This document shows, one piece after another, positions 2,744 through 59,951 of a stretch of DNA of 64,000 nt (within the stretch, counting starts at the first letter, position 1; each line of letters begins with the position of its first letter). The position numbers and the translations under genes were made by a program. The notes beneath the pieces were generated by a model. That model made no database searches. It had not been told where the DNA came from and saw only the letters and a list, made by a program, of their open reading frames with translations. The stretch is from a virus (taxonomy: Duplodnaviria > Heunggongvirae > Uroviricota > Caudoviricetes), in the IMG/VR virus record IMGVR_UViG_3300031853_000017, positions 2,397-66,396 of that record; one strand, given 5' to 3'.

Positions 2744-2756
2744 AGAGGTGAATACA

Positions 2757-3104
2757 ATGAAACCTATGAGATTAACAGAAACAGACAAGAAGCAATTAAT
2801 CGAAAACGGACATACCGAAAGAGATTTCAAACAAATCGAAGAAGCTATGCAGAAATCAAAGACGAAGTATAGCGCCGTCAATATCCAGACCGGAAAGGAA
2901 GAAACGATCCCCCCCCCCCGTGAAAGAGCAATCGAAATCTTAGGGCGCGAAACATGGTTGAGCGGAATTTCAAGAAGCGCATTTCATTGGACTGCTACAC
3001 GAGATAACATGCGCGGATATTTCAAACCGAAATCAGCGGATTATGTTGTTACTCAAATGCCGACATATATAGTGCATTTTGATTCTTCAAATCTTTTCAA
3101 ATAA
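2757..3104 (+). CDS. hypothetical protein containing in-frame C10 homopolymer (PPP)
   Basis: AAGAGGTG SD + ATG; poly-C at 2911-2920. Confidence 0.5.
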   Translation: MKPMRLTETDKKQLIENGHTERDFKQIEEAMQKSKTKYSAVNIQTGKEETIPPPRERAIEILGRETWLSGISRSAFHWTATRDNMRGYFKPKSADYVVTQMPTYIVHFDSSNLFK

Positions 3105-22358: not shown

Positions 22359-23321
22359 GTGACTATTATGAAAACCAATACAATGACAATTTCATCTCCG
22401 TTATTATTTGGCAATATGACGTTTACGGCGGAAGTTCCCGCGCAGAGTCAGCCGAAACTCAAAAAGGACGGAATGCCTAAAATCATCGTGCAGAACAAGA
22501 AGCGCGGAAGAAAATCCGAGGTCTATCCGATTCAGGTGTCTGACATTCGCCGCTTTATGGATTGGTTCGAGAGCAACAAGAAATGGGAATGTTATCTTAT
22601 TTTCGTTATCTCTTGTAATCTTGCCCGCAGAATCGGCGATACGCTTTCCTTACAGTGGAAACATTTCTATGACACTAAAACAGGCAGATTCCGCAAAGAT
22701 TTGCTTGAAATCATCGAGGATAAAACCGACAAACTCGCAAATCCGCACATTAACACGGCTGTTAAAAATGCAATCGTGAAGTATCTTGCCGAAACCAACG
22801 TTGACCCATCTGAAAACAATTACGAGAACTATGTTTTTACTCAGGTGAGCGGAAACTATAAGGGCAGAGTAATGACCGCAGACGGTTATCGCAAATGCTT
22901 GAAAAAGGCTGCTGTTGCGCTCGGAATTGATTACAATGTCGGAACTCACAGCACAAGAAAAACGTTCGGTATGCTGTCCCGTATGCTCCATGCAGGAGAT
23001 TATGATAGCATGGCTCTGCTTGGCGTTATCTATAACCACAGAGATGAAAAGACGACAAGAAGATACACCGGCTTGACAAAGCAGAAGGTTGACACATATT
23101 TTGACGATATGGGAACATTCTTTGACGATTATGTAACTGGCGGAAAAACCTTTACAGAAGTTGCGGAAACTCCCGTCGTTCACATTGATGTCAACGATTT
23201 GCGCGATATTATCAAAATGGCTTATACTGCCGGCGCAGAAAATTCAACCACAAATGACCCAACGGTTCACATTGACGCAATCAATGAAATCTGGGCTATG
23301 ATTGACGGATTAAAGAAATGA
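22359..23321 (+). CDS. int: tyrosine site-specific recombinase/integrase
   Basis: ARRIGD (box I Arg), HSTRKTFG (HxxR), TTRRYTG (catalytic Tyr) motifs. Confidence 0.7.
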   Translation: MTIMKTNTMTISSPLLFGNMTFTAEVPAQSQPKLKKDGMPKIIVQNKKRGRKSEVYPIQVSDIRRFMDWFESNKKWECYLIFVISCNLARRIGDTLSLQWKHFYDTKTGRFRKDLLEIIEDKTDKLANPHINTAVKNAIVKYLAETNVDPSENNYENYVFTQVSGNYKGRVMTADGYRKCLKKAAVALGIDYNVGTHSTRKTFGMLSRMLHAGDYDSMALLGVIYNHRDEKTTRRYTGLTKQKVDTYFDDMGTFFDDYVTGGKTFTEVAETPVVHIDVNDLRDIIKMAYTAGAENSTTNDPTVHIDAINEIWAMIDGLKK

Positions 23322-52810: not shown

Positions 52811-53033
52811 ATATGATAACAGTAGAGTTATTGGTTTAATCATTGAATTGAATAGTCAAATCAAAAACGCAGCCAAAGACGGCGGGTATTCCATAAGAAG
52901 AATAACAAATCTTTATAATAAAGAGGAAGCAGAATACATTAGGCAATACTATGAAAAATTGGGATATGTGGTTGAGTACAGTTACGTATGGCGTGAAATC
53001 ATTATAAATTGGGAGGAGAAATCCAATGAATAA
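52767..53033 (+). CDS. hypothetical protein
   Basis: ORF. Confidence 0.4.
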   Translation: MKTAKEMRKITRKHKYDNSRVIGLIIELNSQIKNAAKDGGYSIRRITNLYNKEEAEYIRQYYEKLGYVVEYSYVWREIIINWEEKSNE

Positions 53034-54261
53034 TAAATGGATTAGGGCTGCGATTCCTGCGCTTTTGATACATTGCTCCGTCGGCACGGTCTATTGTTGG
53101 TCAACATTCAAACAATCCATAGCAGAACAAATTGGAATGTCACCGTTTGCTGTTGGTTGGGCATTTTCCCTTGCAATATTCTTTCTCGGAATGAGCGCGG
53201 CATTTGTCGGCAAATTTGTTGAAAAAGACATACATAAATCATCATTGATTGCTTGTATTTGCTTTACTACAGGTATGATTGGAACAGGGTTGTCTATTCA
53301 ATTCCTAACTGGCTGGGCGGCAATGATAGGAATATATTTATGTTACGGCGTGATTATGGGAATCGGTTTAGGAATAGGCTATTTAACACCCGTGAAAACG
53401 CTTATGTTATGGTTTAGCGAAAATAAAGGTCTTGCAACGGGTATCTCGATTATGGGATTTGGTTTAGCAAAGGCAATAGCGACACCAATTATGGAATGGT
53501 TACAAGGAAGTTTCGAAATTGCGCCAATGTTTATTATCCTCGGCGCGGCATATTTCTGCTTGATGTTCCTCGGACACATTTTGCTCAAAAAACCGGAAGG
53601 CTGGATTGAGCCGAAAGATAATCAAGGATTTAATGTATTATCAATGTTTAAGGATAAACAATTTGTCGGAATATGGTTGATGTTCTTTATCAACATACAT
53701 TGTGGTCTGATGATTATTTCATATGAAAAGCAAATTTTAGGCGTTGCATTTGCAACATTCTCAGGATTGGCATTGATTTTAAGTATTATCCCATCATTTA
53801 CGGCAGGATTTAATGCTCTTGGGCGAATTGGTTATTCAACACTCTCAGATAAAATGAAAGAGAGAAATACGATTTATAAAATTATTTTCACAAGTTGCAT
53901 TGCAATTTCCGCATTGACATTATTAACTCATTCAATTTCTGGTGTTACAAATATTGTGCTTTCAATAATAGTAATCGCATTTTTGTTTATTGTTAATGCT
54001 GGATATGGCGGCGGATTTTCAACACTTCCTGCGCTTTTGTCAGAACGTTTTGGAATGAAGAAGATTAGTCAGATTCACGGATTGGCTTTGTCAGCATGGG
54101 CTATTGCCGGATTAACAGGAAATAATACGTCTGAAATCATTCTTGGAGCAACTAATAACTACGAAAACATCTTAATTGTCGGCTCGATTCTGTATGCTGT
54201 AGCACTGATTATCAGTTTATTTATTGTCGGCAAGAAAAGGAGTACATATGACCAGACTTGA
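53026..54261 (+). CDS. polytopic membrane transporter (MFS-like, ~12 TM)
   Basis: 411 aa with ~12 hydrophobic segments. Confidence 0.55.
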   Translation: MNNKWIRAAIPALLIHCSVGTVYCWSTFKQSIAEQIGMSPFAVGWAFSLAIFFLGMSAAFVGKFVEKDIHKSSLIACICFTTGMIGTGLSIQFLTGWAAMIGIYLCYGVIMGIGLGIGYLTPVKTLMLWFSENKGLATGISIMGFGLAKAIATPIMEWLQGSFEIAPMFIILGAAYFCLMFLGHILLKKPEGWIEPKDNQGFNVLSMFKDKQFVGIWLMFFINIHCGLMIISYEKQILGVAFATFSGLALILSIIPSFTAGFNALGRIGYSTLSDKMKERNTIYKIIFTSCIAISALTLLTHSISGVTNIVLSIIVIAFLFIVNAGYGGGFSTLPALLSERFGMKKISQIHGLALSAWAIAGLTGNNTSEIILGATNNYENILIVGSILYAVALIISLFIVGKKRSTYDQT

Positions 54262-56658: not shown

Positions 56659-56813
56659 GCAGTAAACATAAAAAACAACATAAGCAGATAAATCAAATAT
56701 TATTTTTATTGTACATTATATGTCTTAATTACCCATCTTTCTGATTTTCTTATGTAATAAATTATTCTTTCGTTAAATTTTAACTCCGAAACTTTGAGGG
56801 TTATTCGTGTTAA

Positions 56814-58694
56814 AACGACGATAAAAATAATAATTCAAAGCCACGCGGATATGAACTTACTAATTTTTGTGAATTTGATAAATTTGCCACAACAAGTTAT
56901 TGTGCGATTCATGGCGTAGATGAAAGTCTGAATCTCGGCGATATTACACAAGTTGATGAAACAAAAATAAAGCCATTCACAATGATTTGTGGCGGTTCTC
57001 CGTGTCAAGATTTTAGCGTTGCCGGAAATCAAGCTGGTAGTAAATGGAAATGCTCGGATTGTGGTTGCGAATACAATCCATTAACCGTGCATTATTCAGA
57101 ACGACATAAATGCCCACAGTGCGGAAGTGAAAATATTGATAAAACACGCAGTTCTTTATTGGTTGAATGGTTGCGCGTCATTCGCGCAAATAAGCCAAAG
57201 TGGGGGATTTATGAAAACGTTAAAAACATCGTCGGAAAAAGATTCAAGGAAACATTTCAAATGTTTATTGATGAATTGCACGAATACGGTTACAACACGT
57301 ATTATCAAGTTTTGAACGCCAAGGATTACGGAATCCCTCAAAATCGTGAGCGTGTTTATTTAATTATCATTCTTAAAGAATTGGATAATGGAAAGTTCAA
57401 ATTCCCAAAAGGTTTTGATAACGGCAAACGCCTCAAAGATATGCTTGAAGATGAAGTTGATGAAAAATACTACATTAACACGCCCAGAGCAAAAGAATTA
57501 ATTGATGATTTAATTCGCAGCGGCAAGTTAGATAAGGAATACTCTAACACCGTAAGGAGCGGGGGAGAGGAAGCATAGACAGGCACCAATGGGATGTTAT
57601 TCAGACATAACCTGTCTATTATCCAATCAGTGTGGTTATTTTGATAAAGAAACTGATGTTGCCAACACTTTATGTGCAAGAGATTACAAAGGATTTGGCA
57701 ATCAGCAAATGAATGGAGTTATAACAAAACTTGAATAAGCAGCGAATAATTAGATTGGCTCATAAGGGTTCGGGGGACAAAAAGGTTGGATTTATTCTAT
57801 ATTCGGAATCATATCCACGCTTCCAGCAAGCCAATATAAAGACCCTTCATTGATTGTGGTTTATGATGAAAGAAATTGCGACCACAATCACCGAACAGAC
57901 AGGCAATGTCGTTAAACTTGGCAATGTATATGGTGATTATTCAGGAATGAATTATGCCGGCAACGTGTGGGATGTAAACTATTTTTGTCCGACAATACGA
58001 ACGTGTCAAGGCGGCGGCAATCAGCCAATGATTATAGTGAGTGAAAGAAATGATAATATTAATCGGCGGTTTACAGAAAAATCAAGCCATTAAAACTGAT
58101 GGGATATGCACTACGCTTACATCATCAATGGGAATGGGCGGGGGTATATTCCGTTGGTTATAAAAATTGAGAAAGATGAAACAAATGCAAATCACGAGGT
58201 AATAGATGGACGTTAAGCATACGGAAATTCCCTGCTTTTATGATGACCGAGATAAGGGCTGGGGGGAGAAAACAACAGATTATTGTCCCACACAAAGAGC
58301 AAGTAGGAGTGGAATAAAAATGATAGATAATTCTTCTGTTGGTTATCGTATTAGAAAACTATCTCCGAAAGAGTGTTTTCGACTGATGGGATTTTCTGAT
58401 GACCAATTTGAAAGAGCGCAAAAAGCATTGAATGATAAATTTTACAATGGCAAAGACAGGGCAAATTCACAACTTTACAAACAGGCTGGAAACTCTATTG
58501 TTACAGATGTTTTATTTTACATATTTTATGAGCTTTATCAAGCAATGCCATATTTATTTGATGACCTAAAAGTTAGTAGTTATTTTTCTGGTATTGGGGC
58601 ATTTGAAGTCGCGCTCGACAGATTATTTGATACGATAAATGGCTCTAATCAAAGTAACACTGTTCCCGCAGCGTTCGGGGGAGAAATACAGTAG
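56814..58694 (+). pseudogene. fragmented multispecific-type DNA C5-cytosine methyltransferase (motif I absent; pieces in 3 frames)
   Basis: Motifs IV GGSPCQDFSVAG, VI ENV, VIII QNRERV (56814-57578); three TRD-like segments at 57607-57739, 57854-58093, 58092-58165; motif IX/X KQAGNSIV (58206-58694); frame switch at G5 57560-57564. Confidence 0.5.
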
Positions 58695-58815
58695 TATATG
58701 ATGACTACAATAGCAGAATAAGAGCCGACCAAAACACAATAGGCACTTTAACTACTATGGTTGGTAGTTCTTCACTGAGAAGTTCATATAAACTTATAGA
58801 AAACGAGGGTAATGA

Positions 58816-59292
58816 ATGTACTTAGAAGAAACTGGAAAGATTATTGTTGGCTATCAAGGAGTTGGCAAATCGGCGCTTGCTTTTCATCACATTCAAGTAA
58901 TTGATTTGGAAAGCAGCAATTTCTTTGTAGATGGCGTAAGACAAGGCGATTGGTATAAAGCATATTGCAATATTGCAAGAAGCTTGTGCCGGCAAGGTTA
59001 CATTGTTTGCGTTTCTTCTCATAAAGAAGTGCGTGAGGAATTGGCAAGAAAACCTGCCGAAAAGCAGGTGATTGTCTTTCCTTCGCTTTCTCTTAAAGAG
59101 AAATGGATTAATATGCTCAGCTATCGTTATGAACGGTGCGATACCAGCAAAAACTATAAAGCATGGAGAAATGCGGTAGATTGTTATGAATCAAACATAA
59201 CAGATTTAATGAAACAAGAGGGATTTGAACATATTGAAATTCCGGACATGAATTACAATTTGGCAAATCTCTTGAAGATAGACACGAGGTAA
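58816..59292 (+). CDS. P-loop NTPase/kinase (small, nucleotide-kinase-like)
   Basis: Walker A GYQGVGKS near N-terminus, 158 aa. Confidence 0.5.
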   Translation: MYLEETGKIIVGYQGVGKSALAFHHIQVIDLESSNFFVDGVRQGDWYKAYCNIARSLCRQGYIVCVSSHKEVREELARKPAEKQVIVFPSLSLKEKWINMLSYRYERCDTSKNYKAWRNAVDCYESNITDLMKQEGFEHIEIPDMNYNLANLLKIDTR

Positions 59293-59433
59293 AGAATGAA
59301 ATGTAAACACGCTATGAAATCAATTCTTGGCAAAAAATATGTAAAGTGTGCGCTCGACAGTTCTGCCCGCATAGCACCTTGCAAATGCCCAAAATATCAG
59401 CCGAGAATATGGGAACGAATCAAGAGGTTTTTC

Positions 59434-59951
59434 AAATGGTCATAAACCGCACTTGGGCAATGCCAAATAGTAAAACCTTTTCGATTAAGCCAATCGGCGA
59501 ATTGGTAAGCAAATATGCTTCGGGGGAGAAAGTTATAATCGACCCATTTTCAAATGATTGCAAAATTGGGACTATAACTAATGACTTGAATCCGAAATAT
59601 GATACGGATTACCATTTAGACGCTTTGGATTTTTTGAAAATGATGAAAAGCGAATCTGCCAATGTGGTTTTATACGACCCGCCGTACTCACCGCGCCAAG
59701 TTAAAGAATGTTATGAGGGCGTTGGTATAACTGTTACTGCCGAACACACAAAAGCCTCATGGAGAGCGAAACATTTAGATGAAATCGCTCGAATAGTAAA
59801 ACCAAACGGATTATGTTTGAGTTTTGGTTGGAATACAAATGGAGTTGGCAAAAAGCGTGGGTTTGAAATTATTGAAATTTTAATTGTTGCTCATGGCGGT
59901 AGCAAGAATGATACATTGTGTACCGTTGAAAGAAAAATACAAAGAAGTTAA
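59434..59951 (+). CDS. DNA N6-adenine/N4-cytosine methyltransferase (DPPY)
   Basis: KVIIDPFSN (motif I-like) and VLYDPPYSP (motif IV); AAGAGG SD. Confidence 0.55.

Follow-up and report, generated by a model that had tools for sequence, protein, structure and literature searches.

A putatively phase-variable, split and circularly permuted C5-cytosine methyltransferase locus in a Caudoviricetes phage

Here we analysed a 64,000-nucleotide stretch of phage DNA (Caudoviricetes; positions 2,397 to 66,396 of IMG/VR record IMGVR_UViG_3300031853_000017; hereafter the window) and found in it a predicted DNA C5-cytosine methyltransferase locus in which the conserved motifs are circularly permuted and divided between separate open reading frames (ORFs). 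At this locus an invertible segment carries the start codon, poly-G tracts differ in length on an otherwise identical backbone, and purifying selection is strong on both the N- and the C-terminal parts of the enzyme. We favour the reading, with a probability of about 0.72, that it encodes a phase-variable, split, permuted anti-restriction methyltransferase and not a decaying pseudogene, a reading drawn from sequence comparison. From the same features we infer 5-methylcytosine activity, assembly of the fragments, a change of specificity with tract state and a role in bet-hedging.

Permuted motifs in a split locus

The methyltransferase pieces all lie on the plus strand and are spread across three frames (Table 1). 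The Pfam family DNA_methylase (PF00145) matches both large pieces, the N-terminal fragment with E=8.8e-46 and the C-terminal fragment with E=2.3e-10, and the C5-methyltransferase signatures I (FxGxG, S-adenosylmethionine binding), IV, VI, VIII, IX and X are all present at the locus. An initial annotation, made from the letters alone, had already recognised intact motifs IV, VI and VIII in frame 0 up to 57578, a stop upstream of them in that frame and a last block at 58206-58694 with motifs IX and X, and the fragments that it listed are real. It had also stated that no FxGxGG motif I exists; this was mistaken, as FSGIGAFEVALDRL, invariant in homologues and aligning to M.HhaI residues 13-30, stands downstream of motif X in the same ORF. 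The motifs do not run from I to X in a single chain; their order is II..X, I, and in the window lineage they are spread over at least two ORFs in every tract state. The N-fragment has no in-frame start before 56982 in the window orientation. A separate Shine-Dalgarno sequence (GAGG) lies 7 nt 5' of the C-fragment's ATG, and behind motif I this fragment closes with SNTVPAAFGG, EIQ and TAG.

Table 1. Coordinates of the methyltransferase locus, its putative switches and a candidate recombinase, in window positions. TRD, target-recognition domain; frames as used in the text.
Feature	Position	Strand	Sequence	Remarks
Tyrosine recombinase (Phage_integrase family)	22359-23321	+		PF00589, E=3.9e-12; 34 kb away
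Left inverted repeat	56698-56712		TATTATTTTTATTGT	perfect 12-bp core 56698-56709
Invertible core	56713-56817	-		105 bp; OFF orientation in window
N-terminal fragment	56814-57578	+		frame 0; open after TAA 56811-13, up to TAG 57576-78
Right inverted repeat	56818-56832		ACGATAAAAATAATA	codons 3-6 (NKNN) in ON state
Motif II	56850-56900	+	YELTNFCEFDKFATTSY	frame 0
Motif IV	56991-57017	+	GGSPCQDFS	frame 0; PCQ catalytic cysteine
Cys4 zinc-ribbon insert	about 57045-57125	+		N-fragment
Core control G5	57202-57206	+		within KWGI, catalytic core; G5 in 24/24 near-identical contigs
Motif VI	57210-57227	+	YENVKN	frame 0
Motif VIII	57339-57356	+	QNRERV	frame 0
N-fragment end	57543-57566	+	SNTVRSGG	then EEA, TAG
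Poly-G tract 1	57561-57565	+		G5 here; relatives G5-G9
Module b	57565-57738	+	ERKHRQAPMGCYSDITCLLSNQCGYFDKETDVANTLCARDYKGFGNQQMNGVITKLE	frame 1, then stop; contains TLCARDYKGFGNQ; read if tract 1 is G7/G4
Module a tail	57566-57610	+	RGSIDRHQWDVIQT	frame 2, then stop; read if tract 1 is G6, giving 265-aa P0345
Module c	57731-57915	+	NKQRIIRLAHKGSG; QKGWIYSIFGIISTLPASQYKDPSLIVV	split by tract 2: first part frame 2, second part frame 1
Poly-G tract 2	57772-57776	+		G5 here; contigs G5 x17, G6 x6, G7 x1
Module d	57854-58093	+	KLGNVYGDYSGMNYAGNVWDVNYFCPTIRTCQGGGNQPMIIV; CPTIRTCQGGGNQP	frame 2
Module e	58041-58216	+	LIGGLQKNQAIKTDGICTTLTSSMGMGGG	frame 0; contains TTLTSSMGMGGG; holds tract 3
Poly-G tract 3	58140-58144	+		G5 here; contigs G5 x13, G6 x5, G7 x2
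C-terminal fragment	58206-58694	+		162-aa ORF: module f, motifs IX and X, linker, motif I
Module f	58236-58325	+	FYDDRDKGWGEKTTDYCPTQRASRSG	inside C-fragment
Poly-G tract 4	58261-58266	+		G6 here, in frame; contigs G5 x8, G6 x7, G7 x1
Motif IX	58347-58394	+	RIRKLSPKECFRLMGF	C-fragment
Motif X	58482-58502	+	QAGNSIV	C-fragment
Linker	58542-58583	+	AMPYLFDDLKVSSY	between motifs X and I
Motif I	58584-58625	+	FSGIGAFEVALDRL	downstream of motif X, same ORF; FSGIGAFE 58584-58607
Poly-G tract 5	58677-58681	+		G5 here, module g out of frame; contigs G5 x8, G6 x1
Module g	58694-58825	+	VYDDYNSRIRADQNTIGTLTTMVGSSSLRSSYKLIENEGNECT	frame 2, then stop; contains VYDDYNSRIRADQNTIGTLTT

This arrangement is that of a family of circularly permuted (II..VIII-TRDs-IX-X-I), SPR-like C5-methyltransferases with multiple target-recognition domains (TRDs), found in big gut phages and in some bacterial elements. 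The family proteins have their N-terminus between motifs I and II, none of them with motif I in front, and the X-to-I junction does not vary among homologues. The C-fragment ORF has 987 homologues, which among the best 120 are mostly 112-284 aa long and in many cases lie on contigs of 100-200 kb, and at least 595 IMG/VR loci code for a relative. When 45 related loci were examined, 27 held one intact ORF of 385-574 aa from motif II through motif I and 18 were split; 42 full-length database proteins align end to end. Intact relatives contain several tandem TRD-like units per ORF, in sets that differ from one relative to another. Against M.HhaI, HMMER aligned residues 404-421 of the relative P0232 with 13-30, 4-68 with 32-93, 101-236 with 94-228 and 330-391 with 270-317. 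An AlphaFold model (mean predicted local distance difference test score, pLDDT, of 72, with the C-terminal motif-I strand and helix at 81-95) likewise matched M.HhaI best in Foldseek (E=4e-15). In tblastn the nearest characterised relatives, at 37-43% identity, are enzymes of Bacillus and Streptococcus phages, phi3T among them; together with the SPR-type tandem TRDs of intact relatives, this bears out the earlier comparison with SPR and phi3T. An SPR-type 'GN(I/V)NPSG.GMNGNV...PT.TTNKGEG' TRD occurs in these intact relatives.

Several relatives are of interest in their own right. P0232 (L104/L105) is an intact single-TRD permuted member encoded between FtsK/SpoIIIE, AAA_10 and SNF2-helicase genes, a context that looks more like a conjugative element than a phage, and annotations place further intact members in Anaerobutyricum hallii and an uncultured Eubacterium. 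The relatives P0243, P0323 and P0200 have intein/Hint Pfam domains (PF14890, PF13403) within the methyltransferase. A non-permuted relative lies in a cultured prophage, Streptococcus phage Javan179 (L003, 1929-3207), where a frame change in the TRD region splits the gene into two annotated coding sequences. In two related phages (L007, 5800-6894; L103, 1405-2445) the locus is adjoined by genes for S-adenosylmethionine synthetase (MetK) and further C5-methyltransferases, which suggests a methylation module.

Two other accounts of the broken frames were dropped: translation past the stops, as under an alternative genetic code or stop read-through, gave no sensible continuation, and the gaps between the pieces are too short for introns. 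No known RNA element was matched in Rfam between 56300 and 59300 (E<=1), no relevant tandem repeats were found at the locus, and megablast against GenBank matched no near-identical phage.

An invertible start segment and variable poly-G tracts

A segment of about 135 bp (56698-56832), with inverted repeats of 12-15 bp at its ends (arms of 15 nt with one mismatch and a 12-nt perfect core), carries an ATG that in the window lies on the minus strand at 56716-56714. The window N-fragment lacks a start because this codon is inverted. With the segment flipped, the sequence reads ATG TAC AAT AAA AAT AAT (MYNKNNNSKPRGYE), giving MYNKNNNSKPRGYELTNF, and the proteins P0343 and P0345 indeed begin MYNKNNN. 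Window positions 56695-56832 are the reverse complement of the sequence in L100 and L101 (99.3% identity) and L102 (94.9%), three contigs that are 99.5-99.6% identical to the window. In three more lineages a segment of this kind, about 150-170 bp in BLAST, is inverted between otherwise collinear relatives (L037/38 versus L022/23, L012/15 versus L014/16, L019/29 versus L020), and both orientations are found in four lineages. The repeat sequence itself varies by lineage, with both arms changing together. Among 23 scorable near-identical contigs, 14 were ON and nine OFF. In scaffold L110 (ena:ERZ914904:scaffold_25926, 1180-1420) the left flank is followed by the upright core, the reverse-complemented left flank and Ns; it is an assembly chimera, as expected with both orientations in one sample, and since its core is flanked by an ON junction to one side and an OFF junction to the other, both forms were present in one sample. 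The window copy is in an OFF setting brought about by inversion, not by decay. The locus had been described beforehand as decayed or phase-variable; the data favour the second, and the start codon that seemed lost sits inverted on the other strand.

The 12-mer of the repeat occurs as a single exact pair in the window with no other copies, so that no regulon was apparent there. We had also considered a start from GTG 56806 by slippage in the A4 run at 56809, a candidate that was dropped once the inversion had accounted precisely for the absent ATG. The left arm region (56685-56710) is also one half of a 26-nt imperfect inverted repeat (77% complementary) whose other half lies in module f, just before motif IX (58313-58338); this repeat is probably an AT-rich chance match, although a larger inversion is conceivable.

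The second source of variation is the length of G runs. Six of the 15 runs of G>=5 in the whole window fall in these 2 kb, a clustering beyond chance. At tract 1, whose G5 run is real but had been placed one base too low (57560-57564), G5 leads to an immediate stop, G6 to module a and then a stop, and G7 or G4 to module b; L102 has G6, and L100 and L101 have G7. At tract 5, G6 fuses module g to the C-fragment. Tract lengths differ among contigs that are 99-100% identical. Compared with 23 contigs of the same phage, the window showed 55 substitutions in 30,134 aligned nt; of the 21 gap openings, tracts 1-3 accounted for 17. All 18 split genes contain runs of G>=5 (2-6 each, run length 5-9), at a density of 2.31 per kb versus 0.21 per kb in the flanks, an enrichment of about 11-fold; none of 25 intact phage genes has such a run. 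A homopolymer inside an ORF that differs in length among otherwise identical sequences and shifts the frame is one mark of a simple-sequence-repeat contingency locus, and this is what we observed.

Indeed, exact-sequence look-ups recovered all six combinations of orientation and tract-1 state on one identical protein backbone: ON with stop (P0343, 23 contigs), ON with module a (P0345, 47 contigs), ON with module b (P0122/P0123), OFF with stop, which is the window state (P0342, 10 contigs), OFF with module a (P0346, 21 contigs) and OFF with module b (P0347, 7 contigs). For the C-fragment, the 206-aa P0361 has the identical backbone with module g in frame; in P0359 the frame is lost at tract 4 and kept at tract 5. 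The window itself is in the OFF orientation; there, tract 1 leads to the immediate stop, tract 4 is in frame, and each of tracts 2, 3 and 5 is out of frame. A single open frame with an N-terminal motif I, which the initial annotation had proposed as the sign of an intact enzyme, is the wrong test here, given that the ON copies are split too and that the family places motif I elsewhere.

Could such differences arise from homopolymer miscalls and a misassembled inverted repeat? The frame breaks beside the G runs are all single-base length differences, as might be expected of sequencing errors. However, these states were each found repeatedly, in tens of contigs that come from different studies and were built by different assemblers (MEGAHIT k119/k141, scaffolds, Logan, JGI), the identical 198-aa OFF/stop product is present on 10-14 contigs, the core G5 was never miscalled, and repeats of 12-15 bp are below the assembly k-mer size, which makes an artefactual flip impossible. 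We regard an artefact as extremely improbable.

The pieces might instead be joined at the G runs by programmed ribosomal frameshifting or by slippage during transcription, in which case the variation in DNA would be secondary. A purine-rich, Shine-Dalgarno-like sequence (GGGGGAGAGGAAG) does follow the G runs, and even GC-rich relatives without the G run keep a and b in frames that differ and overlap. Yet length changes are seen directly in the DNA and are sufficient, the direction of the a-to-b offset varies by lineage (P0193 has both in the same frame), slippery sites are missing from the b-to-c and e-to-f junctions, and no known frameshift or other RNA element was found. On balance this explanation appears unlikely.

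In the mechanism that we propose, the locus would reside in a large uncultured gut phage and be translated as an N-fragment with catalytic motifs II-VIII plus a TRD piece and, separately, a C-fragment with a TRD piece plus motifs IX, X and I. Site-specific inversion of the segment would give or remove the start codon and 5' end of the N-fragment. Slippage at the five poly-G tracts in or beside the TRD modules would set the ends of the polypeptides and the TRD piece attached to them, with tract 1 choosing between stop, module a and module b, tract 4 turning the C-fragment on or off and tract 5 adding or omitting module g. The benefit may be bet-hedging between escape from Type II restriction and avoidance of methyl-dependent restriction. 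More tentatively, and at somewhat less than even odds, we suggest that the whole acts as a combinatorial phase-variation device, in which the inverton gates expression and the five tracts reprogramme the TRD pieces on a split permuted multispecific enzyme, so that a single lineage would continuously yield progeny with differing or no methylation specificity, hedging between hosts with Type II and hosts with methyl-dependent restriction.

TRD modules, selection and probable retention of function

Between and beyond the catalytic motifs we recognised seven TRD-like modules, a-g, in three frames. The three signatures described initially are real (TLCARDYKGFG in frame 1, PTIRTCQGGGNQP in frame 2 and TTLTSSMGMGGG in frame 0) but undercount the modules, and the end coordinate of 58694 given for the gene leaves out module g (58694-58822). 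The product that includes module b is the 308-aa P0122/P0123, and in intact relatives this module is an in-frame TRD. The second part of module c reads QKGWIYS..STLPASQYKDP; G6 at tract 2 joins both parts, and L006 has the module in frame. In intact members the 'GNINRPDFGTGYAGGVWD..PTLTTMQGGGRQP' TRD is a homologue of module d, which has a nonsense codon in L101. Module e gives IFRWL and a stop when tract 3 is G5, and YIPLVIKIE..VIDGR and a stop in frame 2 when it is G6. In P0137, module g directly follows module a as one contiguous TRD; in the window the two are 1.1 kb apart, each preceded by an SNTV..GG repeat. Read in its own frame, every module diverges chiefly at third codon positions; the codon-position differences of module a in its frame are 49/13/70, and in the a/b overlap the frame of a is the constrained one.

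Strains are mosaic, and their breakpoints coincide with module borders: downstream of 58206 L088 has 98-100% identity to the window, with different modules upstream, and L100 is 99.6% identical up to 58205 and only about 85% in the C-fragment. This mosaicism raises the possibility that the middle modules c, d and e, and module g behind motif I, serve as a store of silent TRD cassettes, and that recombination at short shared sequences, not slippage, mainly changes specificity. The separation of a and g in the window, their shared repeat and the differing TRD sets of intact relatives would fit such shuffling. On the other hand, mosaicism is seen between strains only and the modules have no flanking recombinase sites; moreover, a cassette reservoir complements the poly-G and inversion switches and does not exclude them. 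We judge this the most plausible of the alternatives, though still improbable as the main source of changing specificity.

In the same region, L100 (2673-3173), L106, L111-L113 and L116-L119 have an HNH-endonuclease ORF (PF01844, weak match) in place of module g, directly after a shorter C-fragment of 116-118 aa.

Selection bears on whether the locus is decaying. In the split lineage, the N-core and the IX-X-I part showed proportions of nonsynonymous differences (pN) of 0.06-0.18 and of synonymous differences (pS) of 0.67-0.95, with synonymous sites saturated, and the ratio of nonsynonymous to synonymous rates (dN/dS), where computable, was 0.04-0.10, with the N-fragment at no more than 0.07. 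In addition, the backbone is identical in every switch state across dozens of independent contigs. The initial annotation preferred a pseudogene, in which a methyltransferase made useless, for example by PurZ-type genome modification, gathers frameshifts. The absent start codon and several frame breaks of the window copy, the nonsense codon in L101, the lack of any ORF with all motifs in the window lineage and a PurZ-like gene 3 kb downstream speak for it. Nevertheless, the values for both fragments argue against the relaxed selection that this predicts, a clean inversion restores the 'missing' start, with both states in four lineages, and the concentration of indels in three poly-G tracts, when a core G5 of equal length stays constant, speaks against decay, as does the enrichment of G runs over the flanks. 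We therefore consider decay quite improbable, slightly more so than frameshifting, and retain the reading of a phase-variable, split, permuted anti-restriction methyltransferase.

A number of observations weigh against that reading. In the window lineage no combination of tract lengths yields a single polypeptide with all motifs, so function needs assembly of the fragments; the N- and C-fragments presumably assemble, by analogy with natural and engineered split C5-methyltransferases. Modules c-e have no convincing ribosome-binding sites and may be silent relics or cassettes, and it is hard to see by which route module g, placed behind motif I, would reach the DNA-recognition domain. The codon-position test of the modules used pairs selected by tblastn, which biases it toward synonymous change. 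Consensus scans for a promoter inside the invertible segment scored no better than shuffled sequence in either orientation. The tyrosine recombinase is only a candidate for the invertase, and a phmmer search of the window with Hin and gamma-delta resolvase matched no serine invertase. Classical contingency tracts usually measure 8 or more, against G5-G7 here, so that switching may proceed at modest rates; in part, the contig differences could also stem from fixed strains that co-exist and not from ongoing switching.

Neighbouring genes and comparison with known systems

Other genes of the window deserve mention. Just downstream of the locus, a 201-aa ORF (59346-59951) has a DPPY motif (VLYDPPYSPRQ) typical of N6-adenine/N4-cytosine methyltransferases, with no Pfam match at E<=0.001. 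The 396-aa product of 61756-62946 matches adenylosuccinate synthetase (PF00709, E=3e-26) and is PurZ/PurA-like, Pfam being unable to separate PurZ from PurA. A Major Facilitator Superfamily transporter gene (53026-54261; PF07690, E=6e-24) lies directly upstream of, and overlaps, a nicotinamide adenine dinucleotide (NAD)-dependent ligase gene. The longest G/C run of the window, a C11 homopolymer at 2909-2919, lies in frame inside ORF 2748-3104 (..GKEETIPPPRERAIE..), possibly a second slippage-prone gene.

Phage multispecific methyltransferases have been a classic subject since the 1980s, and phase-variable methyltransferases are a bacterial paradigm. A phage enzyme joining the two was not found in the literature searched; neither was a phage methyltransferase with an X-before-I permutation of this kind, an inverton acting on a phage methyltransferase or multi-tract poly-G control of TRDs. 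To this the present locus adds an inversion that moves the start codon, and a motif I behind motif X in a permutation not found in nature by a survey from 2018. There is a practical side as well: annotation pipelines will label such loci pseudogenes, and relatives in IMG/VR are numerous and many of those examined are split.

Among known systems, the closest in outline are the Bacillus phage enzymes M.SPRI, M.phi3TI, M.rho11sI and M.H2I, which are likewise phage-borne and have one catalytic core with tandem TRDs of ~40-50 aa between motifs VIII and IX; the phi3T enzyme has 37% identity to the window methyltransferase. In contrast to them, the window family has a permuted order with motif I at the C-terminus and a Cys4 zinc-ribbon insert between motifs IV and VI, and the window lineage has up to seven modules, fragmented and switchable. 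Of natural permuted C5-methyltransferases, PMC5944983 lists only those of 'Type H'. In these enzymes (M.BssHII, M.Alw26I, M.Esp3I and M2.BsaI) motif X precedes motif I, as it does here, and the origin of the window family fits the same duplication-and-truncation model. It nonetheless falls outside the Type H of M.BssHII, being cut between motifs I and II, with only a segment of ~25 residues around motif I moved to the C-terminus. For the split there is precedent in M.AquI, with its alpha and beta subunits, and in engineered fragment pairs; as in M.AquI, two adjacent ORFs are broken in the variable region and both are kept by selection, whereas here the C-fragment also holds motif I, the break point can be moved by the poly-G tracts, and assembly is presumed.

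The putative switches also have bacterial counterparts. Short segments bounded by inverted repeats that occur in both orientations, one of which disconnects the 5' end of a gene, are known as invertons, among them fimS, the invertible promoters of Bacteroides and the 'epigenetic invertons' of hsdS (PMC7672463, PMC9881135), and viral invertons have so far only been 'suggested' (PMC13501310). The window segment, likewise bounded by inverted repeats and found in both orientations in nature, differs in lying in a phage genome, in having its right repeat within the first codons so that the start codon itself moves, and in having no invertase gene adjoining it. In phasevarions (Type III mod, Type I hsd), repeat tracts inside the ORF likewise switch a methyltransferase on and off by their length; those enzymes are N6-adenine methyltransferases of bacterial chromosomes with one tract per gene, whereas the window locus is predicted to encode a phage C5 enzyme and combines five short poly-G tracts at TRD modules with an inversion switch. 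If these switches work as we propose, the family would give engineers a ready natural collection of C5-methyltransferases that are modular, split and permuted, and phages would share the bet-hedging logic of their hosts in the restriction-modification arms race.

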